Assembly: GCA_937897635.1 (NCBI GenBank)
Contig: CALCQI010000025.1
Span: 53,749 to 117,748 of the forward strand
Direction: 5' to 3'
Source of the DNA: an uncultured Peptococcaceae bacterium
GTDB taxonomy: Bacteria; Bacillota; Dehalobacteriia; UBA4068; UBA4997
Length of the DNA stretch: 64,000 bases
Of this stretch, positions 1 to 61,285 are shown piece by piece. Both the position numbers and the translations under genes were made by a program. How positions within the stretch are numbered: the stretch's first letter is position 1; each line of letters begins with the position of its first letter. Below the pieces are notes generated by a model. The model was not told the DNA's origin, ran no database searches, and saw nothing but the letters and a program-made list of their open reading frames with translations.

Positions 1-1891
1 TTGTAGAACCCGCAGGTGTTTGGGAAGTAACTATATTGGAGCCATCCTTTATTTCGGAAGTAAGGCCGGCAATGGCAAGTACTTTTTCAGCCTCTTCCGC
101 AGTAAGGTTTATCACATTAGGAACTGCAATTTTTTTAGCAACAGTATTACCCCTAATTTTATTATCTTCAAGATTGCTAAGTTGGGAAACCACACCCAAA
201 TAACGTAAAGTATCCTCAATTACAACCTTGGCAACAGGGGCAGCTACCTGACCCCCTTGATACAAAGGCCCGCTGGGTTCATCTATCATTACCAGTACTG
301 TGATTTGGGGATCATCACAAGGAGCAACCCCTATAAAAGATGCCACATATTTACCGGGCAAATAACCGCCTTTGCCCGCTTTTTGAGCAGTACCTGTTTT
401 ACCACCTACCCTGTAGCCTTCTACATAAGCCTGACGCCCTGTACCTTCAGCAACCACGCTTTCCAGAATATCCCGCATTACAGAAGAACTATCTTCTGAA
501 ATAACACGGCGTACTTCCTTAACCTGAAAATCCCGTATCACATTACCGTCATTATCCACTATTCGTTTGATGATCTGCGGCTTCAACAAATTTCCCCCAT
601 TTACAACCGCTGATACTGCGGATACCATTTGTAAAGGTGTTACGGAAATGCCTTGGCCTATGGAGATAGTTCCTATATTAAGATCCGATAATTTTTCTTC
701 AGGTATCATTATACCAGCAGCTTCACCCGCAAGTTCTACACCCGTAGGCTTACCATAACCAAAATTTCTTATATAATCGTAAAACAGGCCTTCCTCTTTT
801 GCCTCTATCCTTAAGCCTACTTGCACCAAAGACGGGTTACATGAATTTTGCATAGTCTGCGCAAAGATTTGGTCACCGTGGGGTCTATAGCTGCGCCAGC
901 ACTTAATCCTTTTTGAGCCTATACTGTAATAGCCCTTGCAATAAAAATGATCACTAAGGCTTACCACTCCCGAATCATAAGCAGTAGATGCGGTAATAAT
1001 TTTGAAGGTGGAACCGGGTTCATAGGTATCTACTACCGCTTTATTCCTGCGTGTGGAATTGTCATAGTTTTGATAATCGTTAGGATCATAGGTAGGACGG
1101 TTTGCCATAGCCAATATTTCACCTGTCTTCGGGTTCATTATCAAAATACTGGCAGATGCAGGCGGATACTCGGAAGTCATAAGATTATCCAGCTCACGCT
1201 CGGCAAAATATTGGATAGTTTCATCTATTGTCAAAACTATGCTGTTACCATCCGTAGGCGGATTATATTCCTTTACGGCCTGTGGTATTTCAATACCTTT
1301 GGCATCATATTCCGTAACAATACTTCCCGCAGTACCCGAAAGCACATCGTCCTTGGCAATTTCCAGGCCTTCCAATCCCTGGTTATCAATACCTGCAAAA
1401 CCCAAAATATGAGCAGCCAAACTGCCCTTAGGGTAAAAACGCTGTGTTTCCTCAATGATTTTTATGCCGGGCATATCGGCATCTTCTATTTCTTGGCTTT
1501 TAGCAAAATCAACCTTGCGCTTGATCCATTCAAAAGAACTGTTTTTGGTGATTTTAGCCAAAATAGTTTCTTTATCCATTCCCAATATGCTTGCCAGCTT
1601 TTCAGCTGTCGCATCCGCCTCTCCTGAGGCTAAAACCTCTGTAGGTGCGGCATATATAGAATCGGCACTTAAGCTTATGGCAAGCTTTTTACCATTCCTA
1701 TCGTAAATGGTACCGCGCTTTGCAGCAACCGAAAGTTCTCTGGTTCTAAGGCTTTCCGCCTTGGCCTGCAATTCCTCGCCATTGACTAGCTGAACGTATG
1801 CTAAACGAATAATGATAGCTGAAAAAGCTATCATTAGAATTACAAAAGCCATAAACAGCCTCTTGCGTGTAAATAATTTATTTTTGACCAA
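1..1891 (-). CDS. Class B penicillin-binding protein (FtsI/SpoVD-type transpeptidase with C-terminal PASTA). It is partial: the C-terminus lies beyond the window start. Start is probably TTG at 1891 (alternative ATG at 1852).
   Basis: Not in the ORF track because it runs off the edge. Manual minus-strand translation gives the N-terminus 'KNKLFTRKRLFMAFVILMIAFSAIIIRLAYVQLV' (basic stretch plus a TM helix). Motifs found include '…NRPTYDPND', 'TYEPGSTFK' (SxxK active site), 'KTGTAQ' (KTG motif) and a PASTA-like tail. A GGAG lies 9 nt upstream of the TTG. Position directly after ftsL-rsmH-mraZ supports the call. Confidence 0.85.
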   Translation of the reverse strand, partial: MVKNKLFTRKRLFMAFVILMIAFSAIIIRLAYVQLVNGEELQAKAESLRTRELSVAAKRGTIYDRNGKKLAISLSADSIYAAPTEVLASGEADATAEKLASILGMDKETILAKITKNSSFEWIKRKVDFAKSQEIEDADMPGIKIIEETQRFYPKGSLAAHILGFAGIDNQGLEGLEIAKDDVLSGTAGSIVTEYDAKGIEIPQAVKEYNPPTDGNSIVLTIDETIQYFAERELDNLMTSEYPPASASILIMNPKTGEILAMANRPTYDPNDYQNYDNSTRRNKAVVDTYEPGSTFKIITASTAYDSGVVSLSDHFYCKGYYSIGSKRIKCWRSYRPHGDQIFAQTMQNSCNPSLVQVGLRIEAKEEGLFYDYIRNFGYGKPTGVELAGEAAGIMIPEEKLSDLNIGTISIGQGISVTPLQMVSAVSAVVNGGNLLKPQIIKRIVDNDGNVIRDFQVKEVRRVISEDSSSVMRDILESVVAEGTGRQAYVEGYRVGGKTGTAQKAGKGGYLPGKYVASFIGVAPCDDPQITVLVMIDEPSGPLYQGGQVAAPVAKVVIEDTLRYLGVVSQLSNLEDNKIRGNTVAKKIAVPNVINLTAEEAEKVLAIAGLTSEIKDGSNIVTSQTPAGST

Positions 1892-5526: not shown

Positions 5527-6309
5527 TTACTCGTTTTTAGCTTCGGATTTTTCCGCGGAAACGTCGTCTTTAGCTTCACTGCCACTATTTGAAGCTTCTT
5601 CATTAGGTTCAGCCACCTTACCATTTGCTTCGATCAATTGTTTCAAGGTTTCAATAGCCGAATCAATACTTTGCAAATATGTACTATCTGCGGGAAGTAA
5701 GGCTTTATAAACCTGCAATTCCTGCTTAGCATCCTGATAACGGCCAACACTTACTAAAAATTGGGTATAGGACATAGCAACTTCATAATTTGTGCTGTCT
5801 GTTTCTTTGGCCAGCAAATATTTTGTTTCCGCCTTTTCATTTTCACCCGCCATAGCATAGCTGTTAGCTGCTTTAACAATAAGCTGTGCTTTACCTGTAT
5901 TATTCAAGCCTTCAGGCGTATTGGCATAAGCCTCTTCAAAAAGCTTAGCTGCTTCCGCATATACGGGTTTAGATTTATCACTGTATTCTGTGCTCTTTGC
6001 GGTATCACCATCCGTAGCGGCTTGAGAAGCCGCATCAATATAAACACCTGCCTGGTTATACAAAAGCTCTGCCAAAGCATTTATGGATGCATAATCATTG
6101 GCTTTTTCCTGATAAGTGATCCTGGCTGTGTCAATAGCAGATTGATAACTTGCAATCTGTGCATTGTAATCTACTTTGCTGGTTACATCAGGAGCAGTTC
6201 TGCCGTTGGTTGCATAAACACCCAAAAGGCCAATAACCAGAACCACAAAAATAACGATCAAAAGCCATCTTCTTTTTTTAACACTTGTACGTAAAGACAG
6301 AATAGACAT
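5527..6309 (-). CDS. Membrane-anchored protein with TPR-like repeats (one N-terminal TM helix; acidic, low-complexity C-terminus).
   Basis: N-terminus 'KKRRWLLIVIFVVLVIGLLGVYA' is a signal-anchor. The rest is helical, Ala/Tyr-rich and repeat-like. No specific family recognised. Confidence 0.5.
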   Translation of the reverse strand: MSILSLRTSVKKRRWLLIVIFVVLVIGLLGVYATNGRTAPDVTSKVDYNAQIASYQSAIDTARITYQEKANDYASINALAELLYNQAGVYIDAASQAATDGDTAKSTEYSDKSKPVYAEAAKLFEEAYANTPEGLNNTGKAQLIVKAANSYAMAGENEKAETKYLLAKETDSTNYEVAMSYTQFLVSVGRYQDAKQELQVYKALLPADSTYLQSIDSAIETLKQLIEANGKVAEPNEEASNSGSEAKDDVSAEKSEAKNE

Positions 6310-7575: not shown

Positions 7576-7609
7576 CAAAAAGGGCATCGCAGCTGCGATG
7601 CCCTTTTTA
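7576..7609. terminator. Bidirectional rho-independent terminator downstream of the flx/hdr operon.
   Basis: A 22-nt perfect palindrome gggcatcgcag/ctgcgatgccc flanked by aaaaa on one side and ttttt on the other. Confidence 0.7.
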
Positions 7610-7642: not shown

Positions 7643-8485
7643 TTAGAATTCCTGTGGCAAGCCTTCCAGTTCAGCCATGGTGAATACGGGGCCGTCCAGG
7701 CAAATATATTTACTGCCGATATTGCAACGTCCGCATTTACCAATACCGCATTTCATCCTCATTTCCAAGGTAGTGATAACCTGGTCATTAGAGAAGCCCA
7801 TTTTGGTAAGGCTATCTAAGCAGAATTTGATCATGATGGGAGGTCCACATAATACAACCATCCGGTTATCGGGTTTGAAAGCTAATTCTTCCAAATATGC
7901 GGGCACAAAGCCAACGTGGCAAGCCAGCTCCTCGTCATCACAGTCTACCGTGATATGAACTTTAGTATCCTTCATAGCAGGCCAGTTAGTATAAAGGTCT
8001 TCTTTGAATACCAAGTCTTTAGCACTGCGGGCACCGTAAAGGATGTCTATTTTACCATAATCTTCACGGTTTTCAAAAGCATAACGGATAAAAGAACGTA
8101 CAGGCGCTAAACCGATACCACCGCCGATAAACAGCATATCCTTGCCCTTGCAGGCTTCCACGGGGAAAGTATTGCCATAAGCTCCGCGCACACCTACCTG
8201 CTGGCCTACACTCATTTCATGCAGGGCATCGGTAAGCATACCGCAGCGTTTGATAGCAAAATCCAAATAATCCTCGCCTTTGGCGGTAACGGAGAACATA
8301 CCTTCACCAACACCTATCAGAGAGAACATGCCCAATTGGCCGGGCATGGGATCGAATGGCTTTTTGCCGTCCAATGTTTGTACCCTGAAGGTTTTAGTAT
8401 CAGGAGTTTCATCAGTTATTTTAATAACATTGCAAATTTGCGGCACCAAAGGATTTTCGCCACAAGTACATTCATGATTAGTCAT
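7643..8485 (-). CDS. flxA: FlxA-like FAD/NAD(P)-binding oxidoreductase subunit with a C-terminal [2Fe-2S] site (HydG/AsrB/sulfide-dehydrogenase-beta-like).
   Basis: Ferredoxin-NADP-reductase-like fold ('…RVQTLDGK…', 'MLFIGGGIGLAPVRS') and a C-terminal 'CGIGKCGRC' cluster motif. Last gene of the hdr-flx operon, overlapping the upstream gene. Confidence 0.75.
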   Translation of the reverse strand: MTNHECTCGENPLVPQICNVIKITDETPDTKTFRVQTLDGKKPFDPMPGQLGMFSLIGVGEGMFSVTAKGEDYLDFAIKRCGMLTDALHEMSVGQQVGVRGAYGNTFPVEACKGKDMLFIGGGIGLAPVRSFIRYAFENREDYGKIDILYGARSAKDLVFKEDLYTNWPAMKDTKVHITVDCDDEELACHVGFVPAYLEELAFKPDNRMVVLCGPPIMIKFCLDSLTKMGFSNDQVITTLEMRMKCGIGKCGRCNIGSKYICLDGPVFTMAELEGLPQEF

Positions 8486-9530
8486 TGCTGCCAGCCTCCT
8501 TTAATGCTCCCACTTTATCGATAAACATCGTAATATCAAGGTCTACGGGGCAATCGGCAACACAACGGCCGCAACCCACACAAAGAGAACCTTTACCATA
8601 GCGGTCTTCAAAATAGGCCAGTTTATGCAGGAAACGGTTGCGCACACGTTCCTTTTTACTGGGACGTGGATTATGGCCACCCGCCATTCTGGTATATTCG
8701 GAGAACATGCAGGAATCCCAGCAGCGGAATTTATAGCCTTCATTGCCGCATTCTTTGCCCTCGATATCAAAACAATAGCAGGTTGGGCAAACATAAGTGC
8801 AAGTACCGCAGCCAATGCATTTTTGAGCAGTTTCCTGCCAAATATCGCTTTCAAACATTTTTACATTCATTAATTTTTTCTGCACACCATCCATATTTAC
8901 TTTTAAGGTGCACTCCAAAGCAGCGGCTTCACCATCCCCTTCTTCCAATAAGGGTTTCAGAAGGTTAACCAAAGCTTCGCCTTTTTCGGTTTGGGCTTTT
9001 ACGGCATAATAATCCCCTAAGTCGTTAAGCTGAACATCCGCGGTAGGTGCAGCTACAGGGTTTAAGCCCATAGAATCGCAGAAACAGGTAGGCAAAACCT
9101 TAGTGCAGCCAATAGCTACAGTTGTAAGGTTTTCTTTTTTCCTGGAGTAGAAGCTGTCTACATAACCGCGGGTAAGGAAAACCTCATCCATGCAATCTAT
9201 AGAGTGCATATCACAGCTGCGGATACCAAAAATGATTTGCTTATCGGTTTCTTTGATTTCTTCAAGGCTTTCCACCTGGGTAAGCCTGGTTTTGTATTTA
9301 TACATTTTTTCCGTTTGCGGGAAAAGGGCATCCTTGGGAGGCAACAGCGTATTTACGGCATCCATGGCCAATTCGCCCTCTGCACCCCAAGGCGCAAATT
9401 TGGTAACTCCTTCTATTTTCATAGGCACAAGTAAATTAGCTTCCTTGGCCATTAAATCGAAGGCCTGTTGTAATTTATTTTTCGCTAGTTTCAATTTTGG
9501 CACCCCCCTACATATACTCTTCATGGTCAT
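8478..9530 (-). CDS. flxB: FlxB-like iron-sulfur subunit (AsrA/HydB-like, 4Fe-4S dicluster).
   Basis: 'CIGCGTCTYVCPTCYC' and 'CVGCGRCVADCP' ferredoxin motifs, 350 aa. Matches the beta subunit of sulfhydrogenase / anaerobic sulfite reductase subunit A. Confidence 0.7.
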   Translation of the reverse strand: MTMKSICRGVPKLKLAKNKLQQAFDLMAKEANLLVPMKIEGVTKFAPWGAEGELAMDAVNTLLPPKDALFPQTEKMYKYKTRLTQVESLEEIKETDKQIIFGIRSCDMHSIDCMDEVFLTRGYVDSFYSRKKENLTTVAIGCTKVLPTCFCDSMGLNPVAAPTADVQLNDLGDYYAVKAQTEKGEALVNLLKPLLEEGDGEAAALECTLKVNMDGVQKKLMNVKMFESDIWQETAQKCIGCGTCTYVCPTCYCFDIEGKECGNEGYKFRCWDSCMFSEYTRMAGGHNPRPSKKERVRNRFLHKLAYFEDRYGKGSLCVGCGRCVADCPVDLDITMFIDKVGALKEAGSND

Positions 9531-10362
9531 CTAATTTATAGGTGCCCAACGGAGGTTTAACTTCAGTGTTCATGCCAGCTTCATATTCACCGAACAGTTC
9601 ATTGGCGTCTTTCAGAAGCTTGCGGTTCAATTTCATAAGGGGAAGGCCTACAGGACATACGCGTTCACATTCACCGCATTCAATGCAGCGATCGCCAATG
9701 TGATAAGCACGGGTCAAACCATAAACCTGGTTTTCGGCACGGTTGTTCTGTTTACCCTGCCAACCTACCCTGTACTGATCCACATAACATTCACGGCAGT
9801 TGCAAGCCGGACAAACATTGCGGCAAGCATAGCAGCGGATGCATTTATCGTATTGCTTGGCCCAGAATTCATAACGTTCATCTGCACTTAAGGCTTCCAT
9901 AGCTTCTACATCTTTGAAGCGGTCGGGGTAGCCTTTTTCCTGTACGGGTTCACCAACCATTACATCAGCTTCCAGTGGGTTATGGTGCATACATTCAATA
10001 CACTTTTTAACCATTTCGCCTGTAACAGGATCTTTTTTGCCTTCACAGGGCAAACCAATGAGATAAACATTTTCCCTTTTTAGCTGATTATCTTGGATAA
10101 GACGGTTAACGGCACGGGAATCACAACCACGCACACATAAACCGATTTTCTTTTCGGGGTACATATTATCCATAGTATATTTGGCCAAAGTATTCAGGCA
10201 GTATTCATTCCAAACCAGTTCATCAACTTTGGCGGGTTCTTTTACAAATACGGGGCTGGTTTTATTAGTACGGCCTTTGCCCCAGCCTATTATATAACCT
10301 ACTTCACCGCTTTCCAAAAGCTTTTTGGCGGTTTCTCTCAATTTAGCCTGCATATCGCTCAT
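9508..10362 (-). CDS. flxC: FlxC-like polyferredoxin / iron-sulfur subunit.
   Basis: Multiple Cys clusters: 'CVRGCDS', 'CEGKKDP…CIECMHHNP', 'CIRCYACRNVCPACNC' and 'CIECGECERVCPVG'. Its RBS GGAGGGG lies inside the 3' end of the preceding mvhD-like gene. Confidence 0.65.
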   Translation of the reverse strand: MSDMQAKLRETAKKLLESGEVGYIIGWGKGRTNKTSPVFVKEPAKVDELVWNEYCLNTLAKYTMDNMYPEKKIGLCVRGCDSRAVNRLIQDNQLKRENVYLIGLPCEGKKDPVTGEMVKKCIECMHHNPLEADVMVGEPVQEKGYPDRFKDVEAMEALSADERYEFWAKQYDKCIRCYACRNVCPACNCRECYVDQYRVGWQGKQNNRAENQVYGLTRAYHIGDRCIECGECERVCPVGLPLMKLNRKLLKDANELFGEYEAGMNTEVKPPLGTYKLDDHEEYM

Positions 10363-10794
10363 TTAGTTCCCCTCCTTAAATTTGGTGTTGGGGCCTAATG
10401 CCGCTACATCAGCAGTAACTTTTTCAATAGTTTCTTTAAATTTGCCGGCCTCGGAACCGGAAATCCAACGAGCTTGGAAGCGGCCGGGTTCAATACCGTT
10501 ATATTGTAAAAATCTTTGCATCATCAAGAAGCGACGACGTGTGAAGTAATTGCCACTAACATAGTGGCAGTCGCCGGGGTGTCAGCCGGCCACCAAAATA
10601 CCGTCAATGCCTTTTTGGAAAGCACGCAGCACAAATTGGGGGTTTACCCTGCCGGAACAGGGAACACGCAATACGCGTACATTATCCGGATATTTCATCC
10701 TATTCAAGCCTGCCAAGTCTGCACCGGCATAAGCACACCAGTTGCAGCAGAAAGCTAAAATTTTAGGATTCCAGTTTCCTTCTTTTACAGACAC
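10363..10794 (-). CDS. flxD: MvhD/FlxD-like [2Fe-2S] protein with an in-frame UGA (selenocysteine) at 10582-10584. The ORF track truncates it at the UGA.
   Basis: Read-through translation gives '[52 protein letters not shown]…', which matches the conserved MvhD core (xGCxxGDCHYxxGN) with Sec at the first Cys position. A 7-bp stem-loop (tgccact/agtggca) begins 12 nt after the UGA at 10551-10569, which fits a bacterial SECIS. Confidence 0.7.
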
Positions 10795-12764
10795 AGCGCA
10801 TCCACCTCCTCTAAGATCTGGCCGTTGGTATAACCCAACAAATCAATAGCACCGGGACGGCAGGCAACTACGCAGGCACCGCAGCCTTGGCATAAACCGG
10901 TATTTACGGATGCTACTTTACGTTTTACCCATTTACCGTCTTCACGACTGTCTATTTCTTTCAACTCGATTGCTTTATAAGGACAGCATGCCGCACAGAA
11001 ACCGCATCCCGAACATTTTTCCGTATTCACATGGCTAATCATGGGGTCGGTATCCATTTCGTCTTTGCTGAAAAGTGCGCACACTTTAATAGCAGCAGCA
11101 GAAGCCTGAGCAACCGTATCTGGAATATCCTTGGGTCCTTGACAAGTACCTGCCAGGAAAACACCGCCCGTATGGGTTTCCACAGGACGTAATTTGGGGT
11201 GAGCTTCCTGAAGCCAACCATCTTTGTCCATGCCTGCACCGATCATCTGGGCAACCCTGGTAGTATCAGCGGAAGGAACCATAGCAGTTTCAAGAACTAC
11301 CAAATCTGCTTCCACTACCACATTTTTGCTTACTAAAGTATCTTCACCGCAGCAGAACAGCTTACCGTCTTCCTCATAAATCTTGGAAATACGGCCGCGT
11401 ACATAAACTGCACCGTCATGCAGGGTTTTCATGTAAAACTCTTCATAAGCTTTACCCGGAGTACGAACATCCATATAGAATACATAAGCCTGGCTGTCAG
11501 GGCATTTTTCCAGTACTTGGTGAGCATGCTTGGCAGCATACATACAGCAGGCACGAGAGCAGTAAGACCTGCCTTTATTGGGATCACGGGAGCCAACACA
11601 TTTTACGATAACTACCGATTTAGGAGTTTTGCCGTCGGAAGGACGAACAATTTTACCTTCAGTAGGGCCTGAAGCATTGCTCATACGCTCAAACTGCAAA
11701 CCATCTATAACATCGGGATATTTGCCGTAACCATATTCACCGTAAAGTTTAGCCCAGTCGATAAGATCATAACCTGTGGCCATTACGATGGCACCGAAAG
11801 TTTCGGTAACATATTTATCCTGGTCTTCAAAGTCTATGCAACCCAAAGGACAAACTTTGGCACAAATACCGCATTTACCTGTTAAAAGCTTACGGCAGCT
11901 TTGATTATCAATAACAGGTTTACTGGGAACGGCCTGTGGGAAAGGTTTGTAAATACTGGTACGCTTACCCAAACCTTGGTCAAATTCACTAGGTACCTTG
12001 GTAGGACATTTAGTTTCACAAAGACCACAGCCTGTGCAAACAGAATGGTTTACATATTTAGCTTTTTGTCTAATTTTAACTTGGAAGTTACCTATGTAAC
12101 CTTGAACATCTTCTATTTCACTGTAAGTCATTAATTCAATATTGGGGTGCTGCGCCGCAGCAACCATTTTAGGTGCGCTAATTCAGGCAGAGCAGTCTAA
12201 TGTAGGGAAGGTTTTGTCCAACATTGCCATTTTGCCGCCGATAGTAGCTTCTTTTTCCACTATCACTACTTTATGACCGGCATCCGCAATGTCCAAAGCC
12301 GCCTGTAAGCCTGCTATACCACCTCCGATCACCAATGCTCTTTTATTTATGGGAATTGTGGAAGTATACAAAGGCTCGTTTTTAGTTACCTTTGCAACCG
12401 CCATTTTTACAAGATCTGTAGCTTTTTGGGTAGCGCCTTCTTTATCGGTATGTACCCAAGCAACTTGCTCACGAATATTCGCTACTTCCAATAAATATGG
12501 GTTCATGCCTGCGTCGGCAAGGGTTTTACGAAAAGTAGCCTCATGCATACGGGGAGTACAGGCAGCAATAACTACCCTATCCAAACCTTGCTCTCTGATA
12601 GCCTCTTTAACCATTTCCTGACCGGGCTCCGAACACATATATTTATATTCTGTAGCAAAAACCACACCCGGCATTTCCTTGGCAGCTTCAACCACTTGGC
12701 CTACATCTATACCGGCAGCGATATTAGTACCACAATGGCATATAAATACACCTACACGCCTCAT
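10785..12764 (-). CDS. hdrA: Heterodisulfide reductase subunit A (HdrA), a selenoprotein. It is a single 659-codon ORF with an in-frame UGA at 12183-12185; the ORF track splits it into 12183..12764 and 10785..12167.
   Basis: The N-terminal piece '[19 protein letters not shown]…[16 protein letters not shown]…TLDCSA' stops at a TGA exactly where HdrA normally has Cys/Sec (TLDCSxC/U). The same frame continues '[11 protein letters not shown]…' into the C-terminal piece, which carries the ferredoxin clusters. A stem-loop ggttgctgcggcgcagcacc lies 17 nt after the UGA (12146-12165) and resembles the E. coli fdhF SECIS (GGUUGCAGGUCUGCACC). Confidence 0.8.
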
Positions 12765-13717
12765 GCTGTTTCGCCTCCATTTTTAGTATTTTCCTGTTTT
12801 GCCTTAGCAATAGGCTTAACAGGTTTTTTAGCCGAAACTTCTTCCACAGGTTTGGGAATCAAGGCTTTTTCGGCTACTTCCACAGCGGGGAAGAAGTGTT
12901 TATTTATACCTATCGCTTTGGCACCCGAACCTAAAGCCATAGCCAATAATTCGGTAAAGAAATAAACAGGGATATTCAAGCGAGGATCACGCCTGGACAT
13001 TTCCTTCATGCGCATATCCAAATTGAGCATGCATAAAGGACAAGCCGTTACTATAGCCTCGGCACCATTGCTTACCGCATTTTTAAGTAAACGGTAAATG
13101 ATTTCCCGCCCTACTTTAGGAACAGATACTTGGTGGCTAGCGCCGCAGCATTCGGTTTTGAATGCCCATTCCACAGGGGTAGCACCTACCAATTCCATTA
13201 ACTTATCCATGCTTTGAGGGTTTTCAGTATCATCGAACTGCACAACACCTGCAGGACGTACCAAAAGACAGCCGTAATAGCTGGCAACTTTCAGGCCGTT
13301 CAAGGGTTTGGCAATGTTAGCTTTGATAGCTTCCATTGCTTCAGGACGGCTCATTACGTCCAAAAGGCAGTAAACATCGTTTTTAGCCTTGTAGGGAATT
13401 TCCAAAATATCTTCTATATGTTTTTGGTTTTTTTCCGATTCCCTTACATATTTAACAGCTGTTTTCATTCTGCCGAAGCAAGCAGCACAAGGTACTGCAA
13501 CATCCAAATCCATATCTTCGGCCAAAGCCAAATTACGGGCAGGCAAAGCTATTGAAAGATCATGATTAGTAAGGTGAGCGGCAGAAGCACCGCAGCAGTT
13601 CCAATCAGGAGTTTCAATCAGCTCCATACCTATTTTTTTCGCCACAAATCGGCTGGAAAGCTCAAATTCCACACCGCTTCCTGCCGAAGAACAACCGGGA
13701 TAATATGCATATTTCAT
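12761..13717 (-). CDS. hdrB: Heterodisulfide reductase subunit B (two CCG domains).
   Basis: 'YYPGCS', 'CCGAS…' and a second 'CCGASHQ' cysteine-rich CCG motif, 318 aa. Stop/start overlaps with hdrA and hdrC. Confidence 0.8.
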   Translation of the reverse strand: MKYAYYPGCSSAGSGVEFELSSRFVAKKIGMELIETPDWNCCGASAAHLTNHDLSIALPARNLALAEDMDLDVAVPCAACFGRMKTAVKYVRESEKNQKHIEDILEIPYKAKNDVYCLLDVMSRPEAMEAIKANIAKPLNGLKVASYYGCLLVRPAGVVQFDDTENPQSMDKLMELVGATPVEWAFKTECCGASHQVSVPKVGREIIYRLLKNAVSNGAEAIVTACPLCMLNLDMRMKEMSRRDPRLNIPVYFFTELLAMALGSGAKAIGINKHFFPAVEVAEKALIPKPVEEVSAKKPVKPIAKAKQENTKNGGETA

Positions 13718-14283
13718 TATTTATTACCCCCTTCCAGGCATTTGGCCATAATTTTTCTTACGCTTGCTTTATCCTTAACCATATGCGGACGGATACGAAT
13801 CTTACGGTTGAAATATAAATGTGGGGCAGACCAAACATCCTGCATAAGGTGGCCTGTGGTAAAATTATACAAGCCCATCAAAACCATTTCATGAGATTTG
13901 CCGAAATAACGGATATTGTTCAGGAACAAATCATTAAAACGATTCAATTCCTTAATGGGTGTAATACCCTTCTTTTTAGCTTCCTGCCGAACAGCTTCCA
14001 TTAAAGAAGGCAAATCGACTTGATGCGGACAACGGGTAACACAGGTTTGACAAGTGGCACACAACCACGGAGTGCGGGCTTTAAGTACTTCATCCCACAT
14101 TCCAAGCTGCATGTAGCGAATGACTTCACGCGGTTGCAAGTCCATAGCCAAAGCTACAGGACAACCGGCTGAGCATTTGCCACATTGATAGCAGTCAGCA
14201 AGGTTTACGCCGGACTTAGCCTGCATATCCCCAATAACTGATTTGTTCTTGGCTGATGCTTTGGTTAAATCAACTACTACCAT
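13717..14283 (-). CDS. hdrC: Heterodisulfide reductase subunit C (4Fe-4S dicluster). Start re-placed to 'MVVVDL'.
   Basis: 'CYQCGKCSAGCP' and 'CATCQTCVTRCP' motifs. GAGGAG sits 5 nt upstream of the ATG at 14283. The 5' end carries a GGGG…CCCC hairpin. Confidence 0.75.
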   Translation of the reverse strand: MVVVDLTKASAKNKSVIGDMQAKSGVNLADCYQCGKCSAGCPVALAMDLQPREVIRYMQLGMWDEVLKARTPWLCATCQTCVTRCPHQVDLPSLMEAVRQEAKKKGITPIKELNRFNDLFLNNIRYFGKSHEMVLMGLYNFTTGHLMQDVWSAPHLYFNRKIRIRPHMVKDKASVRKIMAKCLEGGNK

Positions 14284-14567
14284 AATATCTCCTCTTCCTC
14301 CTTTTTGAACACAGGGGTTACGGCCCGTCCCCATTGGTTCTGCGTAATTAAATATAAAAAGAATTTATAGGCAAAGCCTTTTTTACGCACATCATTTATG
14401 AATTCTTTACAAATACTGCTTTTCCTGCTAATATATACGATTTTTGTAATTTTTTATTGTATTTTTTATGTTTTTCGACAGATGGAATTTTATTAGTATT
14501 TATACGCAATAAAAGTATAACATATGTATACTGTATTTTCATTAGCAATTTATGCTAAGAATAATAT

Positions 14568-15704
14568 TCAGTTTCGTAAAAATATTCGGGCAATAACACC
14601 ACGCTTGATGTTGATGGCTTTTTGCGGGCAAAGCTCATGGCAGCAAAAACAGCTTACACAAGTTGAAAGGTTTGCCATTGGTCTTTTGTTCTTAATTTCT
14701 ATTATTTTCATAGGGCAATTCTGGGCACAAAGACCACAGCCGTTGCAGGAAACACCGTTAAACACAGGGTATGCCTTAAGCCTTTTATCCAACCATTTCA
14801 CTATGAATTTTGGCAATTTATCAGCATACATATTAATAGCCGCACTTTTTGATTTTACAAAATCCTTTATACATACTTCAGCAAAATCATCCCCCAAAAT
14901 TTCAGGAAATTCATCAGCCTTCAACAAACCACGTTTGCAGGCAGCATTTAGCATAGGTACCTCTTTTGCATCCAAACCTATCAAAGCCGCCCCTACCCTA
15001 TCTAATGCAGGCAGATCCGCTCCTCCTAACAACACCCCTGCTTTACGGGGTTTACCGCCCGAAGGGCCGTCACCTTCCATTCCAACTATACCATCTATAA
15101 TGGCATAATCAGGTTTCATGGCAAAACAAATATCCAAAAGCGTATCGGCAAAATCGTTATATTCGGGCATCCGCAAATGGTACTGTATCTTTTCCACCCC
15201 GGGTATAGCACCAAACATATTTTTCATAGCACCTGTATATGCCATCATACCATGCGTTTTCAACTTAGCCATGCTTATAAGAATATCCGCCGCCGCCATG
15301 GCTTTTACCACATTCATTGTTTTGATTTTTTTACCCTCAGCAAAGCCTATTTCTATTGTATCCGTATTATAATTCAACTCACAGCCTACTGCTTTTGCCG
15401 CCTCCTGCATACATGTTATACGGTAAACCGTTTTCAGATAAGCCGCGTTAAAAACACCACCCGGGCTATCGCCAATGATCACCTTGCAGCCCTTTTCCAA
15501 AAAATAAAGTGCCACCGCTTTGATAACAGCAGGATGAGTGGTTACAGCTTCCTCAGGTTTTTTACCAAGCAAAAGATTGGCTTTTAAAAATACCGTTTGC
15601 CCCTTTTCTACATTTAAGGGGCTAAGCCGGAATATTTTTTTCACTTTTTCCGCTACTGATTTCTCATCATAATCCGCACATTTTAGCAAAACTACTTTTG
15701 ACAC
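14568..15704 (-). CDS. DUF362-domain protein with a C-terminal 2x[4Fe-4S] ferredoxin domain.
   Basis: C-terminal 'CNGCGLCAQNCP…CVSCFCCHELCP'. GTG start with GGAGG 7 nt upstream. Lies 233 bp upstream of, and in the same orientation as, the hdr-flx operon. Confidence 0.7.
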   Translation of the reverse strand: MSKVVLLKCADYDEKSVAEKVKKIFRLSPLNVEKGQTVFLKANLLLGKKPEEAVTTHPAVIKAVALYFLEKGCKVIIGDSPGGVFNAAYLKTVYRITCMQEAAKAVGCELNYNTDTIEIGFAEGKKIKTMNVVKAMAAADILISMAKLKTHGMMAYTGAMKNMFGAIPGVEKIQYHLRMPEYNDFADTLLDICFAMKPDYAIIDGIVGMEGDGPSGGKPRKAGVLLGGADLPALDRVGAALIGLDAKEVPMLNAACKRGLLKADEFPEILGDDFAEVCIKDFVKSKSAAINMYADKLPKFIVKWLDKRLKAYPVFNGVSCNGCGLCAQNCPMKIIEIKNKRPMANLSTCVSCFCCHELCPQKAINIKRGVIARIFLRN

Positions 15705-17571: not shown

Positions 17572-17772
17572 TTATTTTTCCGCCACTTCATTAAGAGCTT
17601 TCATCAGGGCATCAACATCCATGCCATGGCCTATAGCCCCTTGTTCAATGGTTTCATACCTTGCTGCTACACAACCTAAACAACCCATGCCAAATTCCAT
17701 TAAAACACGAGCGGTATCGGGCCATTTTTCTACAATTTCTATAATACCCATATCTTTGGTAATAGTTGCCAT
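17572..17772 (-). CDS. DUF1858-domain small protein (hybrid-cluster-associated redox domain).
   Basis: 'MATITKDMGIIEIVEKWPDTARVLMEFGMGCLGCVAARYETIEQGAIGHGMDVDALMKALNE' matches the DUF1858 pattern. GGAGGTG is 4 nt upstream of this ATG; the track start is over-extended. Confidence 0.7.
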   Translation of the reverse strand: MATITKDMGIIEIVEKWPDTARVLMEFGMGCLGCVAARYETIEQGAIGHGMDVDALMKALNEVAEK

Positions 17773-17871
17773 AATACACCTCCAAAAAAATTTTACGTTA
17801 TTAGTATAACATATCTTGTCCATTTATCAAGTAGTTATTCGATATTTCCTACGGAACTACTAATCTTTATT

Positions 17872-31005: not shown

Positions 31006-31767
31006 TTATAAGGATTTGCTTACAGTATTGGATTTAGGCATACCGAAGCAATTCAATAAAGGTTCCAAAACCAAAAGCCTTAAATCAGCGGCTAATTTAG
31101 CGGGAAGCATTGCCAAATAGCTTTCACAGTTTTCCAAATAATTCGGTTTGAGATTCAGCTTTTCCTTGATCAAACCCTGCATTATTCCACTGTAATAACC
31201 AAAACCGGCCATGGCCTCTTTAGCTTCACCCTCCAAGCCTGCCAGAGTAGCACCGATCAAGCCTGCCAAAGCAGGTAAATGCGCATATTCACCGTTTATT
31301 TCCTCTAAGCGCTCCTCAAGCGGGACAAAACCTCTTTCCGACCATTTAAGTTTTCCGTTTCTGGCTTCGTTCATTCTGCAAATCACATCACCCAAAGCAT
31401 CCAGCCAAGTACTTAAATCATTTTTTATCATGGCTTCATAAGCTTTGGCAAAAAGATAATCACCTATCAAAATCGGGTATTGATAATCCTCTTTTTCACC
31501 AACAGGTGGAACCTGATTATGTACCTGCTGCGCCAAATAGGTAAACTGCACCACCTGAGAGGCGCCATAAATACGCTTAAGTGCATTATCTGTACAACTA
31601 TCCATAGGTAGGTTAGGTATCAGCACCAGGGAAATCAAATAATCCTTGTCCAACCAGCTCAAATACAGCTGCTGCTTAAGCGGTATATTCCGCACATAAC
31701 GTTCATAATCCTCAGCAATAAAACTTTTTGCTATCATCAGTTGCTGCAATGCTTTAGCTTTCATCAC
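31006..31767 (-). CDS. Putative heptaprenyl diphosphate synthase component I (HepS-like).
   Basis: About 250 aa, helical, and directly upstream of hepT. The assignment rests on size and context only. Confidence 0.4.
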   Translation of the reverse strand: MMKAKALQQLMIAKSFIAEDYERYVRNIPLKQQLYLSWLDKDYLISLVLIPNLPMDSCTDNALKRIYGASQVVQFTYLAQQVHNQVPPVGEKEDYQYPILIGDYLFAKAYEAMIKNDLSTWLDALGDVICRMNEARNGKLKWSERGFVPLEERLEEINGEYAHLPALAGLIGATLAGLEGEAKEAMAGFGYYSGIMQGLIKEKLNLKPNYLENCESYLAMLPAKLAADLRLLVLEPLLNCFGMPKSNTVSKSL

Positions 31768-39764: not shown

Positions 39765-39926
39765 TTATTTTTCAATAATAGCACCCACAGGGCAAGTTTC
39801 TACACAAGCACCGCATTCTACACATGCATCGGTGATTACGTAGATATCACCTTCGTTGATGGCTTCACTGGGGCATTCTGCCTTGCAAGCACCACAAGCC
39901 AAGCATTCATCAGTAATTTTATACAT
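39765..39926 (-). CDS. Clostridial-type 2x[4Fe-4S] ferredoxin (54 aa).
   Basis: 'CLACGACKAECP' and 'CVECGACVETCP' motifs. AGGAGG is 8 nt upstream of 'MYKITDE'. Confidence 0.8.
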   Translation of the reverse strand: MYKITDECLACGACKAECPSEAINEGDIYVITDACVECGACVETCPVGAIIEK

Positions 39927-39984
39927 TAAGAGCACCTCCTTTCGGTTCATCTAAATATCGCAATTTTATTTAAGAAAAGAAAAA

Positions 39985-56733: not shown

Positions 56734-57624
56734 AGCATCCTCTCCACGAAACAAAATAAATACAGCATAAGATTAAGTAAAATGCTATATAATATAGTAA
56801 CTTTTCTGCAAAAGCAGAATATTACCTGCCCCAAACTCCAAATAAATTTTCCGACACTTTAACAAAACCGCAAAACAAGCATTTTTATACAAAAATACTA
56901 CATAATATTACATATTTTCCATTTATTTTTAAAAAATAAAATTAAAAAAAGGCAAAAAATTTTTTACTTCAGATTCAGACAATTTCCCAAAAAACAGGTT
57001 GATTTACATCAATTTTCCGACAAATCAATCATTTTATCAACATTAGACAATATCTTAACATGACGTTCCGTTGAGTGGAAAGAGTTTTTTGAAAATTCTC
57101 ACATGGCAATTTAAGTGGCATTTTGCTTTCTTAATATGAAAGTTTTAAATATAAGCATCTTTATGCCCTGCTATGGTATACTGTATACAGGAATAATGAA
57201 CTCATAAAAAGGCTTGCTATTTTGGCAATAATGTATTAGAATTGTTAAAGAGATTTAACGGGTTTTCCCTGTCCCTTATCCATTTTTTCCCTCATATAAA
57301 AAATGAATAATATTTACTTAATATTGCCTACGGAAAGCTGTGTATTCTTTTTCTTGCAGATATGCTTTAAATAGCAAAAAATGGCGATAAAACACAGCTC
57401 TAACATAAAATTATATGCTGTTTCATATTCCTTCCTATTAGAAATTTCCTATTAGAAACAGGTATAAGCATCTTTGGTAGTTAATTATAACAAAGGGGTT
57501 TATTATTTGTTTGCCCCTAGGCTTTTGGAAATTTCAGAAAAAACAAATAACCTTCTCTTGTCTTTGTTTTGCTTTGGTTAGAGGATCAAGGCAAAATAAA
57601 ATATATTTTAGGAGGCGCGAAGAA

Positions 57625-59463
57625 ATGAATGGTGGTTTTATGGGAAAATTTCTGTGGGTTAATTTGACCACAGGCGCAATCGAGGTGGAAAAGCCTGATA
57701 TAAGCCTTTATAAGGATTATTTGGGTGGCTACGGTATTGGAGATAAGATACTTTACGAAAAATTAAAGCCTGGTATCGATCCTTTGGGTCCTGAAAATAT
57801 TTTAGCTTATTTACCGGGGTTGCTTACCGGTACAGGTGCACTGGTTGCTTCCCGTTTTATGGTTGTAAGCAAATCGCCTTTAACAGGTGGTATCGGTGAT
57901 GCCAACTGCGGTGGACACATTGGCGCGGAAATGAAAAAAGCAGGCTTTGACGGTATTTATTTTACCGGCCAATCCGAAAAACCGGTTTACCTTTATATTA
58001 CAGATGACCATGCAGAACTGCGTGACGCTACATCTTACTGGGGTATGACAACTTACGAAACCGAGGAAGCCTTAAGAGAGGTAACCGACCCCAAAGCAAG
58101 GGTTTCCGCTATTGGACCGGCAGGTGAAAGAATGAGCCTGCTTGCTGCTATTGTAACTGAAAAAGGCAATGTTGCCGCTCGTTCCGGCCTTGGTGCCGTT
58201 ATGGGCTCAAAAAAGCTTAAAGCTGTAGTAGTTAAAGGTTCACAAAAAGTTAAAATTGCTGATGAAGAAGCTTTCAAAGCTGCCCGCGCAAAATATACCC
58301 CGGAATTCAAAGAAGGCATGGGGAAATTATTGCGAGATTTCGGTACTGCGGCTTTCTATGAAGGCTCTGTAGAATCTGCTGATGCTCCTATAAAAAACTG
58401 GGGCGGTGTTCCCAGCGATTATCCCAATGCTGCCAAATGCGGCGCCGAAGCTCTTAAAGAAATAACTGTTAAGAAAACTCCCTGTACAGGTTGCCCCGCT
58501 GGTTGCGCACGCCTGATACAACCCAAATATACCGATGAACAAATAAAAACTATTCAATATGAATCTCAGGGCGCTTTTGGTTCAATGTGCCTGGTAGATG
58601 ATTTGGAATCCATGGTAAAAGCCAACGATTACTGTAACCGTTACGGCACCGATACAATCTCTGTAGGTGCAGCCTGTGCTTTTGCCATAGAATGTTTTGA
58701 AAATGGTTTGTTGACACTGGAACAAACCGACGGCTTGGAATTAAAATGGGGCAACGGCCCTGCTATGGCTGAGCTTGCACGCCGTATCTGCATGAGAGAA
58801 ACCTGGCTGGGTGAGCTTTTGGCAGACGGCACCTTAAAGGCTACAGAACAGATTCCCGGCTCTTTCGAATATGCCATGCAAATTGGCGGCCAGGAACTGC
58901 CCATGCACGACCAACGCTTAACTTATGGCCTTTATACTATGTATTTGGCAGAACCCACGCCGGGCAAACATACTCAAGGTACTGAGGACTATGCTCCTCC
59001 GCAAATCCCCATGCCTGAATATGATCCCGCAGGCCAGGCTGATCGTGGTGCGTCTCACAAAATGATAGAAGACTTTGCCCACGTTGTTGATGCTTTAGGT
59101 TTTTGCCTTTTTACTAATATATTCATACTTCCTTACACAAGTGCGGAAGATTTCCTAAACGCTGTTACCGGCGAAAAATATACCTTTGAAGATTTACTTA
59201 AAATAGGCGACCGTATTTCCATGCTGCGTCATGCTTTTAATACCCGTGAAGGCATTAAATTCACTGACCGCAAGGTTCCTAAACGTTTACTGAAGGCTCC
59301 CGAAAAAGAAGGTCCCCTGCAAGGCGTTGTGTTAGACCATGATCAGCTGATTGGGGATTATTTGAAGGATTCCGGTTTGGATCCTGTTACCCTTAAACCC
59401 AAAAAAGAACGTCTTTTGGCTTTGGGTCTTGATAATGTGGCATCAGAACTTTACCCGGAATAA
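57625..59463 (+). CDS. aor: Tungsten-type aldehyde:ferredoxin oxidoreductase (AOR family).
   Basis: 'GKFLWVNLTTGAIEVEKPD' AOR N-terminus and a 'CTGCPAGC' [4Fe-4S] motif. AGGAGG is 9 nt upstream of the ATG at 57625. The track start at 57511 is an in-frame artefact. Confidence 0.85.
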   Translation: MNGGFMGKFLWVNLTTGAIEVEKPDISLYKDYLGGYGIGDKILYEKLKPGIDPLGPENILAYLPGLLTGTGALVASRFMVVSKSPLTGGIGDANCGGHIGAEMKKAGFDGIYFTGQSEKPVYLYITDDHAELRDATSYWGMTTYETEEALREVTDPKARVSAIGPAGERMSLLAAIVTEKGNVAARSGLGAVMGSKKLKAVVVKGSQKVKIADEEAFKAARAKYTPEFKEGMGKLLRDFGTAAFYEGSVESADAPIKNWGGVPSDYPNAAKCGAEALKEITVKKTPCTGCPAGCARLIQPKYTDEQIKTIQYESQGAFGSMCLVDDLESMVKANDYCNRYGTDTISVGAACAFAIECFENGLLTLEQTDGLELKWGNGPAMAELARRICMRETWLGELLADGTLKATEQIPGSFEYAMQIGGQELPMHDQRLTYGLYTMYLAEPTPGKHTQGTEDYAPPQIPMPEYDPAGQADRGASHKMIEDFAHVVDALGFCLFTNIFILPYTSAEDFLNAVTGEKYTFEDLLKIGDRISMLRHAFNTREGIKFTDRKVPKRLLKAPEKEGPLQGVVLDHDQLIGDYLKDSGLDPVTLKPKKERLLALGLDNVASELYPE

Positions 59464-59573
59464 GCATTAATTTTGCTACAATAATTTCCCTTAAAAAATA
59501 TTGTTTTATTTGCTATTCAATATTCTACAGGGAAAATTTATTGCATATACAATTATATTTGGAGGCGATATTT

Positions 59574-60995
59574 ATGTCCAAAATCGATTGGAAACAAGTA
59601 GAACAATGGAACAATGAGTATGTCATTAAGTGCTTCTTAAAACAGAGCGAGTATGGTACCATGTTCATTGAAAGCACCGAAGGTGATTACCTTATCGATG
59701 CTGATGGTAAGCGTTGGTTAGACTTCTACAACCAACTTTACTGCGTAAACGCAGGCCAGAAAGTTCCTGAAGTACAGCAGGCTATTAAAGATGCTACTGA
59801 CCGTTATGGTTTTGTATGGGATATTTACACAACCGACTACAAAGCCGAAGCAGCTAAAATGATCGTCAAAGACATCCTTGGTGATAAGGGCTGGGCTTCC
59901 CAGGTTCGTTTCACTTTAGGTGGCGGCGATTCCGTAGAAGTAGCTTCCCTGATCGCACGTTTGTACACAAACAAAAACCTGATTGCTACTCGTGAACACG
60001 CTTATCACGGTGTTTCCTCAGGTGCTGTTTCCTTTACCACTATCCCCGCAAGCCGCAATAACGCAGTTACCGAAGAATATGGAAAAAGCTTAGAAGTTCC
60101 TGGTGCAGACTTCCAAGGCTCTTTCATGTGCCCTGCTCCTTTCTGCTATCGTTGCTCTTTGGGCCATACATATCCTGAATGTAAATGTGTACATGCAGAT
60201 GGTACTTTGCCCTGCGTAAAACAAACTGAAGCCGTTATTCGCAGCCACAACGTTAACCGCGTTGCTGCTATCATCACCGAGCCTGCTTTTGGTGCTGGTA
60301 CTATTATGCCTCCTAAAGAATACTTACCACAAATCCAGGATATGAAAAACCGCTTAGGTATACTTTGGATTATGGACGAAGTATTGATGGGTTGGGGTCG
60401 TTTAGGCGAATGGTTTGGCCACCAGTTATATGGCGATATCAAACCCGATATCATGACTACTGCAAAAGGTATTTCCAGCTCCAGCTTACCTTTGGGTGCT
60501 GTAATAGTAAATGAAAAAGTTGCTAAATTCTTGGCAGAAATCCGTTGGAACCACGTTTCCACCTTCTCTGGCCACCCAATCCCTGTAGCAGCTGCTGTTG
60601 CTAACATGAAATATCTGATCAAAAATGATGCTCCCGGTCATTGCAAAAAAGCCGGTGAATATTTCGGTCAGGAATTATTGGCATTAGAAGAAAAACACAG
60701 TTCTATCGGTTTAGTAGCAGGTGCCGGTATGTTCTGGCAGGTTGAATTGGTTAAAAACCGTGAAACTAAGGAACCCTTCATTGCTGATGACCGTTATCTC
60801 ACTTTTGCGGGCGACCAATCTAAATATCCTGTTCATATCATTGCTGATAAATGCGCTGAAAAAGGCGTTCTGCTTGGTGGTTTCGTACCTAATACTTTGC
60901 GTATTGGTGCTTCCTGCATGGTAGAAAAAGCTGATATGGATAAAGCTATTAACGCTATGGATTATGCGTTGACCTATTTGGAAACTCAATTCTAG
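59574..60995 (+). CDS. Class-III (omega) PLP-dependent aminotransferase.
   Basis: 'DEVLMGWGRLG' and the Schiff-base lysine 'IMTTAKG'. GGAGG RBS upstream of 59574. Confidence 0.85.
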   Translation: MSKIDWKQVEQWNNEYVIKCFLKQSEYGTMFIESTEGDYLIDADGKRWLDFYNQLYCVNAGQKVPEVQQAIKDATDRYGFVWDIYTTDYKAEAAKMIVKDILGDKGWASQVRFTLGGGDSVEVASLIARLYTNKNLIATREHAYHGVSSGAVSFTTIPASRNNAVTEEYGKSLEVPGADFQGSFMCPAPFCYRCSLGHTYPECKCVHADGTLPCVKQTEAVIRSHNVNRVAAIITEPAFGAGTIMPPKEYLPQIQDMKNRLGILWIMDEVLMGWGRLGEWFGHQLYGDIKPDIMTTAKGISSSSLPLGAVIVNEKVAKFLAEIRWNHVSTFSGHPIPVAAAVANMKYLIKNDAPGHCKKAGEYFGQELLALEEKHSSIGLVAGAGMFWQVELVKNRETKEPFIADDRYLTFAGDQSKYPVHIIADKCAEKGVLLGGFVPNTLRIGASCMVEKADMDKAINAMDYALTYLETQF

Positions 60996-61015
60996 TATTG
61001 AACTAAAAAAGGGGT

Positions 61016-61037
61016 GAGCCACCCTTAAGGGTGGCTC
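61016..61037 (+). terminator. Hairpin downstream of the aminotransferase gene; a weak terminator with no clean T-run.
   Basis: gagccaccc-ttaa-gggtggctc stem. Confidence 0.4.
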
Positions 61038-61285
61038 GGCTTCCTTTATATATCTGCTAGGCCGCATCCTATACAGATATATAAATATAGTTTTACAATG
61101 CTTAATAAGAAATCACAATCTTGCTAAAATTAGAAATAATAATACAATATTGTTCTTTCTCATTAGGCACTGTTATATAAATTACTATAGTTAAAAAGCC
61201 GCGTTTGTTTTTATCTACTGCTATTTTATTATTATCCATTTATTCAAAGTTGTTGTGAAAGTTGTTATTAAAATGGAGGTGCTTT

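Follow-up and report, generated by a model that had tools for sequence, protein, structure and literature searches.

A gene cluster named hdrCBA-flxDCBA has been described for Desulfovibrio vulgaris, Bilophila and anaerobes generally (Ramos et al., 2015, as cited in PMC12125255 and PMC6103483); in the literature it has been linked to NADH oxidation with ferredoxin and DsrC as the acceptors, and it is described as widespread. Here we analyzed a 64-kb stretch of contig CALCQI010000025.1 (positions 53,749 to 117,748 of the forward strand, called the window below, with position 1 as its first letter), which carries on its minus strand a seven-gene cluster of this type and, upstream of it, a gene for a DUF362 protein. 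The locus is very probably a canonical hdrCBA-flxDCBA operon that encodes a soluble HdrABC-FlxABCD complex. The clusters of Desulfovibrio (Nitratidesulfovibrio) vulgaris Hildenborough and Bilophila wadsworthia (PMC12125255, PMC6103483) consist of the same seven gene types in the same order with tight coupling, and the likeness extends to a FlxA with flavin adenine dinucleotide (FAD)/NAD(P)H and [2Fe-2S] sites, Fe-S proteins FlxB and FlxC, an MvhD-like FlxD, and HdrABC with intact CCG motifs. A locus from a metagenome-assembled genome (MAG) of Desulfovibrio sp. (L073) has hdrA-flxDCBA in the same order, with 38-51% identity to the window proteins. Unlike Desulfovibrio and Bilophila, the window host is from a lineage of Clostridia that does not reduce sulfate, no dsrC is seen, and its operon is not flanked by alcohol dehydrogenase genes. 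HdrA and FlxD of the window are predicted selenoproteins, with selenocysteine (Sec).

Nearer relatives are found in Dehalobacterium formicoaceticum and Ca. Formimonas warabiya, which carry an orthologous operon with identical gene order, 56-83% protein identity, Sec at both sites, and downstream neighbours partly in common with the window (YlbF, Fur, M20 peptidase). The methanogen complexes HdrABC-MvhAGD and HdrABC-MvhD-FdhAB (PDB 5ODC, 7BKB, 8RVU, 9T1S) have homologous HdrA/B/C and MvhD cores, the CxxU/CxxC pair beside the FAD is conserved, and FlxC shares homology with FdhB over the N- and C-terminal blocks of the latter. In contrast to the methanogen complexes, the window complex has a predicted NAD(P)H-oxidising FlxABC input in place of a [NiFe] hydrogenase or formate dehydrogenase, and its substrate cannot be CoM-S-S-CoB, the heterodisulfide of coenzyme M (CoM) and coenzyme B (CoB). 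The beta and gamma subunits of Pyrococcus furiosus sulfhydrogenase I (9NEZ) and AsrAB share fold-level homology and cofactor motifs with FlxB and FlxA.

Eight minus-strand open reading frames (ORFs) were confirmed between positions 15704 and 7576, comprising the DUF362 gene and the seven hdr-flx genes:

15704-14568, minus strand: DUF362 gene, 378 aa, GTG start with a GGAGG ribosome-binding site (RBS)
14284-14567, minus strand: spacer between the DUF362 gene and hdrC, 284 bp, AT-rich, with weak promoter-like sites only and no terminator-like site
14283-13717, minus strand: hdrC, 188 aa
13717-12761, minus strand: hdrB, 318 aa
12764-10785, minus strand: hdrA, 659 codons, with an in-frame TGA as codon 194
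10794-10363, minus strand: flxD (MvhD-like), 143 codons, GTG start, with an in-frame TGA as codon 71
10362-9508, minus strand: flxC, 284 aa
9530-8478, minus strand: flxB, 350 aa from ATG 9530 or 338 aa from TTG 9494
8485-7643, minus strand: flxA, 280 aa
7609-7576, minus strand: intrinsic terminator of the operon, -24.6 kcal/mol, z = -6.7, with a U-run

The seven co-oriented genes stand in the order hdrC-hdrB-hdrA-flxD-flxC-flxB-flxA and are tightly packed: hdrC and hdrB overlap by 1 nt, hdrB and hdrA by 4 nt, hdrA and flxD by 10 nt, and flxB and flxA by 8 nt, while flxD and flxC abut. The flxC/flxB junction is a 23-nt overlap if flxB begins at ATG 9530 or a 13-nt gap if it begins at TTG 9494; the latter is the start in the NCBI (PGAP) annotation of the same sequence and may be the right one. 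For hdrC the most likely start, as judged from the leader and the homologues, is ATG 14283, which is preceded by a strong RBS (AAAGGAGGAAGAGGAG) and coincides with the starts of homologues; ATG 14334, the start of the longest ORF, was judged less likely. The distance from hdrC to the DUF362 stop at 14568 is therefore 284 bp. The earlier note, made from the letters of the window, had placed the DUF362 gene upstream on the same strand, which holds, and had given both 233 bp and the present spacer, of which the shorter value does not agree with the start at 14283. The terminator is a perfect 11-bp GC-rich palindrome (GGGCAUCGCAGCUGCGAUGCCC) followed by a U-run, and 0 of 200 shuffled sequences folded as well. 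Overlapping or abutting genes that end at a single strong terminator suggest one transcription unit. Thus the description of the locus as a seven-gene HdrABC-FlxABCD-type operon with overlapping or abutting genes and a strong palindromic terminator at 7576-7609 agrees with the ORFs, the junctions, the folding and the domain matches given below.

For comparison, 80 related loci were fetched with flanks of up to 10 kb per side, from Lachnospiraceae, Oscillospiraceae, Eggerthellaceae/Coriobacteriia, Moorellaceae, Peptococcaceae, Syntrophomonadaceae, Thermincola, Smithella, Desulfobacteraceae and one Desulfovibrio MAG. Every contig that was long enough shows the order flxD-flxC-flxB-flxA, and most have the full hdrC-hdrB-hdrA-flxDCBA. 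The gene order of the window had been taken as the reverse of that in Desulfovibrio, and this has to be withdrawn: the order in the literature is hdrCBA-flxDCBA, as in the 80-locus sample, and "FlxABCD-HdrABC" refers to the protein complex rather than to a gene order. The FlxC family counts 2387 cluster representatives at E <= 1e-10. The window FlxC is identical to that of a "Clostridia bacterium" MAG, and its closest named relatives are those of D. formicoaceticum (70%) and Ca. F. warabiya (68%); the host is an uncultured Clostridia lineage related to Dehalobacterium and Formimonas, Dehalobacteriia-like. The closest syntenic relative (loci L082/L083) has a FlxC 74% identical to that of the window and the same neighbourhood, with RadC, DnaE, DUF1858, Hsp33, LysM, hdrCBA-flxDCBA, YlbF, Fur, MraZ and RsmH. 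A comparative study of the Dehalobacteriia found HdrABC and Flox clusters in the group, and Hdr/Flox proteins among the abundant ones in the proteome of D. formicoaceticum on dichloromethane (PMC10327494).

Per-gene hidden Markov model searches with Pfam and NCBIfam agree with all of the domain assignments made earlier for these genes. HdrC matches NCBIfam CoB_CoM_SS_C (3e-21), the QmoC N-terminus and Pfam Fer4_8/17, with two CxxCxxCxxxCP [4Fe-4S] motifs at residues 31 and 75. HdrB matches Pfam CCG in two stretches (1.7e-22) and NCBIfam CoB_CoM_SS_B (1.4e-49, under the equivalog cut-off); both of its CCG motifs, CX31CCX34CXXC and CX39CCX34CXXC, are intact, and these domains form the predicted non-cubane [4Fe-4S] disulfide-reducing site. 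HdrA scores 825 bits against NCBIfam HdrA2 over residues 3-657 and 723 bits against the Methanothermobacter wolfeii HdrA (PDB 5odc_A), and it has an FAD-binding GGGIAG (GxGxxG) and several [4Fe-4S] motifs. FlxD, encoded beside hdrA, is MvhD-like by a full-length Pfam FlpD match (3.9e-53), NCBIfam VhuD (5e-37) and the C-terminal MvhD domain of HdrA2 (2e-50). FlxC matches Pfam Fer4_8/17 and, faintly, FrhB_FdhB_C; it aligns with FdhB of the Hdr-Fdh complexes (9t1s_M, 8rvu_E, 7bkb_E) in two blocks (query 13-125 and 164-273 versus chain 30-144 and 276-381) and is thus FdhB/FrhB-like without the central ~130 residues of FdhB. It carries two classical CxxCxxCxxxC motifs and the invariant cysteines C80, C106, C121, C124, C187, C189 and C192, so that the term "polyferredoxin" used for it in the earlier note overstates the case. 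The invariant cysteines beyond the ferredoxin motifs (80, 106, 121 and 124 in the N-terminal part; also 187, 189 and 192) suggest further metal sites, and by inference FlxC would serve as the Fe-S adaptor between FlxD and the NAD(P)H module docked on it. FlxB matches Pfam Fer4_22 (2.6e-33), NCBIfam AsrA (188 bits, cut-off 323), ShyB/HydB (~165 bits, cut-offs 690-750) and the beta subunit of P. furiosus sulfhydrogenase I (PDB 9nez_B, 8.8e-47). FlxA matches Pfam NAD_binding_1 (1.2e-16) and DHODB_Fe-S_bind (1.7e-9), NCBIfam AsrB (209 bits, cut-off 288.6) and HydG, and the gamma subunit of the same sulfhydrogenase (PDB 9nez_C, 1e-48); its C-terminal [2Fe-2S] motif reads C246-x4-C251-x2-C254-x7-C262.

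Two subunits had been proposed as selenoproteins, and the sites and the selenocysteine insertion sequence (SECIS)-like hairpins next to them are as follows:

12185-12183, minus strand: in-frame TGA, hdrA codon 194, in C191-S-A-U194 (CxxU)
12145-12165, minus strand: SECIS-like hairpin of hdrA, GG-UUGCUGC-GGC-GCAGCA-CC, ~20 nt 3' of the UGA, as the centroid structure
10584-10582, minus strand: in-frame TGA, flxD codon 71, in G-U-HPGDCH
10551-10570, minus strand: SECIS-like hairpin of flxD, UGCCACUA-UGU-UAGUGGCA, ~11 nt 3' of the UGA, -19.1 kcal/mol, z = -2.96

Both TGA codons align with conserved Cys residues of homologues when the related loci are searched by tblastn. The two sites switch jointly, also among close relatives: in the 58 loci (from the 80) that are readable at both sites, 34 are Cys/Cys, 24 are TGA/TGA and 0 are mixed. 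Both sites are Sec in the window, Dehalobacterium and Formimonas, and both are Cys in L082, the syntenic relative closest to the window. The hdrA hairpin, UGCUGY-GGC-RCAGCA, is found in 25/25 TGA-type sequences with compensatory C-G to U-A changes in the stem, and the flxD hairpin, UGCCACUA-UGK-UAGUGGCA, in nearly all of them. In the 60 nt 3' of the FlxD site the mean minimum free energy is -17.6 kcal/mol in TGA loci versus -13.0 kcal/mol in Cys loci (Mann-Whitney p = 6.6e-7). HdrA and FlxD each have a stem-loop shortly downstream of the UGA with a G in the apical loop, as is typical of SECIS elements. From the Cys alignment, the joint switching and the conserved hairpins, the earlier proposal is borne out, and both TGA codons are predicted to be genuine selenocysteine sites. 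HdrA (CxxU) and MvhD/FrhD-type subunits are long-known selenoprotein families, so Sec in these two proteins does not single out this locus; Sec197 of Methanococcus maripaludis HdrA, equivalent to Sec194 of the window, sits beside the bifurcating FAD. The NCBI annotation of MAG GCA_028706095.1 lists an HdrA of 659 aa and an MvhD of 143 aa, and the read-through has therefore already been recognised there. The FlxD motif reads V-C-G-C in Cys-type loci of Coriobacteriia and Lachnospiraceae and V-[ASG]-G-U in Sec-type loci. As for the Sec machinery, no selA, selB, selC or selD gene was seen in the window; a tRNA scan of the window returned no tRNA genes, and an Rfam scan returned no match at gathering thresholds.

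The assignment as an hdrCBA-flxDCBA operon is carried by gene content and order, cofactor motifs, Sec recoding signals, the terminator and conservation across taxa. We infer the electron path, NADH as the donor, and ferredoxin and a disulfide as the acceptors from homology to Hdr complexes of known structure and to the Desulfovibrio system, which has been studied genetically. The FAD of FlxA would accept a hydride from NAD(P)H, and single electrons would leave via the FlxA [2Fe-2S] cluster, cross FlxB and FlxC by way of their Fe-S clusters and reach the MvhD-like FlxD at its [2Fe-2S] cluster; FlxD, docked on HdrA, would hand them to the bifurcating HdrA FAD. From there one electron would go uphill via the [4Fe-4S] clusters of HdrA to ferredoxin, and the other downhill via HdrC to the two non-cubane clusters of HdrB and on to a disulfide (DsrC in sulfate reducers). 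The reverse direction (confurcation), with formation of NADH, may also occur. Sec194 of HdrA would form a thioredoxin-reductase-like CxxU pair beside the FAD, Sec71 of FlxD would replace a conserved Cys, and both would be decoded via the SECIS hairpins just 3' of the UGA. Several points weigh against this assignment. No NCBIfam equivalog model matched FlxB or FlxA as Flx proteins, and the scores lie under every equivalog cut-off, so that the two are assigned from context and from homology to HydBG and AsrAB. The preference of FlxA for NADH versus NADPH is not one that its sequence would reveal. The literature found reports no activity of purified FlxABCD-HdrABC, and the role in Desulfovibrio rests on genetics and expression. 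Finally, no DsrC-like ORF or thiol carrier is present in the 64-kb window, and the acceptor is therefore undefined, as it is for all non-sulfate-reducing carriers of the hdr-flx cluster; the earlier note had left the physiological disulfide acceptor open, and we agree.

In NCBIfam and PDB, FlxB and FlxA match AsrA/AsrB and HydB/HydG or ShyB/ShyC best, which could be read to mean that the two proteins are AsrA and AsrB of an anaerobic sulfite reductase, or sulfhydrogenase beta and gamma subunits, which merely lie beside an Hdr module. We consider this extremely improbable. The scores fall far under the equivalog cut-offs (188 versus 323, 209 versus 289, and ~165 versus 690-750), neither a siroheme AsrC gene nor [NiFe] hydrogenase alpha/delta genes were found in the window, and flxBA is translationally coupled to flxC, flxD and hdrA, a linkage that is kept in ~80 loci. 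Both AsrABC and sulfhydrogenase (HydBGDA/ShyBCDA, with adjacent [NiFe] small and large subunit genes) were thus rejected because of scores under the cut-offs and missing partner genes. Alternatively, the Hdr module might serve a methylene-tetrahydrofolate reductase (type IV MTHFR, as in the HdrABC-MvhD-MetVF of Moorella), or feed the Wood-Ljungdahl pathway directly, in either case with no thiol/disulfide substrate. Dehalobacteriia rely on the Wood-Ljungdahl pathway, to which their HdrABC and Flox clusters have been suggested to supply reductant (PMC10327494), and the Moorella MTHFR does use HdrABC-MvhD. However, no metV or metF lies beside the operon here or in the related loci examined, the CCG motifs of HdrB are fully conserved, and Moorellaceae carry hdr-flx (L014, L020) while the MTHFR-linked Hdr of Moorella is a MetVF-linked cluster; we regard this alternative as very unlikely. 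The earlier note is right that hydrogenase and CoM/CoB genes are absent nearby, and in the whole window no hydrogenase, formate dehydrogenase, MetF, AsrC or DsrC-like gene was found.

DUF362 is related to the N-terminal domain of LarA, and to our knowledge it has no known function. The gene product in the window matches Pfam DUF362 (4.9e-53) and ends in two [4Fe-4S] Fer4 domains. It had been put forward as a co-regulated gene or an additional electron-transfer partner. A stronger reading would be an eight-gene unit, with the DUF362 gene transcribed together with hdrCBA-flxDCBA and its ferredoxin-domain product serving this lineage as one more subunit for electron transfer or substrate handling. 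In favor of such a unit, the gene lies on the same strand; read-through into hdrC may occur, since the spacer has no terminator-like site and the best sigma-70-like match of the region (TGGACA-16-TATAAT at 15777-15750) sits upstream of DUF362. A DUF362 gene in the same orientation also lies upstream of hdrC in two relatives, at ~2 kb in L091, a Dehalobacteriia-like contig (46% identity), and at ~6 kb in Dehalobacterium. Against it, no DUF362 match was found in the fetched flanks (up to 10 kb per side) of the hdr-flx loci (0/80); in L082/L083 no DUF362 gene lies between LysM and hdrC, LysM directly preceding hdrC, and in Formimonas none lies in the 6 kb examined upstream of hdrC. In those relatives that do have the gene, it is separated from hdrC by unrelated genes, of which some run the other way: an opposite-strand small acid-soluble spore protein (SASP) gene and a beta-lactamase-fold gene in L091, and genes for SASP, isocitrate dehydrogenase, a CoA-binding protein, catalase and an S-layer protein in Dehalobacterium. 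The DUF362 gene of Sporanaerobacter is not linked to hdr-flx, and Clostridia very commonly carry members of the 378-aa DUF362+Fer4 family (2947 matches at E <= 1e-30), in unrelated contexts. DUF362 is not a conserved neighbour, and a partner role is therefore without comparative support. Residual synteny (Hsp33 ... DUF362 ... hdr ... YlbF-Fur) fits better than a functional link, and the adjacency in the window looks like a remnant of core-chromosome synteny from which the intervening genes were lost, not a functional module. We consider the eight-gene unit unlikely, and it is quite unlikely that the protein was recruited as an eighth, co-transcribed Hdr-Flx component in this Dehalobacteriia-like branch.

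The spacer 14284-14567 showed no similarity to the equivalent spacers of relatives. An alignment of the hdrC leader with its counterparts in four relatives showed conservation of the RBS and the start codon only, with no common promoter or operator. A small GC-rich hairpin (GGGGACGGGCCGUAACCCC) lies in the hdrC leader at 14309-14327 on the minus strand, just 5' of the RBS, and is not kept in the four aligned relatives. A blastn-short comparison of the DUF362 promoter region with the hdrC promoter region of a DUF362-less relative, which asked whether DUF362 had been inserted downstream of an ancestral hdr promoter, gave chance 8-13-mers only. A Rex-box search (TTGTGAAnnnnTTCACAA, <=3 mismatches) gave 3 matches versus 4.4 expected, none of them upstream of hdrC or DUF362, and thus no evidence of Rex control. 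In a consensus promoter and terminator scan the counts were not above those of shuffled controls, and the true terminator at 7609-7576 was missed, presumably because its palindrome has almost no loop.

The rest of the window is housekeeping, with MraZ/RsmH/FtsL, Fur, YlbF, Hsp33, DnaE, RadC, RecA, RNase Y and ProS, and further IspG, Dxr, RseP, UppS, Frr, PyrH, Tsf, HslUV, XerC, TrmFO, TopA, DprA, Ddl and MurF. The only non-housekeeping redox cluster besides hdr-flx lies 43 kb off, at 57511-62683 on the plus strand; it consists of an aldehyde:ferredoxin oxidoreductase gene (AFOR_N and AFOR_C, 650 aa) and, after it, genes for a class-III aminotransferase and an amino-acid permease. A search of the unassigned window space for small thiol-carrier or DsrC-like ORFs returned none, and yielded only a 61-aa ferredoxin and a DUF1858-like ORF. 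The former (39765-39950, minus strand, in the uppS/frr gap) is of the clostridial 2x[4Fe-4S] type and might serve bifurcating enzymes in general as a low-potential partner. At 17572-17823 on the minus strand, an 83-aa ORF lies between Hsp33 and DnaE, in the place taken by a DUF1858 gene in L082; this is probably a genuine small gene, too short to pass the 120-aa ORF filter. Three ORFs in the 226-260 aa range had no family match, those at 5527-6309 (minus strand) and 947-1627 (plus strand) in Pfam, and that at 31006-31767 (minus strand) in NCBIfam or Pfam; at the position of 5527-6309, L082 has an unannotated 237-aa gene.

We concluded that the locus is an ordinary, already described operon, whose gene order and Sec residues are normal for the family, and that its significance beyond correct annotation is little. 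If the DUF362 protein had been recruited after all, it might bind a substrate or cofactor or link the complex to ferredoxin, and it would offer a handle on the thiol/disulfide partner of Hdr-Flx in non-sulfate-reducing bacteria. The main question, which thiol/disulfide couple Hdr-Flx uses in organisms that lack DsrC, is one for the family as a whole, and this window does not make it easier to test. With this operon, one more uncultured Clostridia genome joins the many anaerobes that carry Hdr-Flx, with the paired Sec/Cys switching of HdrA and FlxD that is usual among them.

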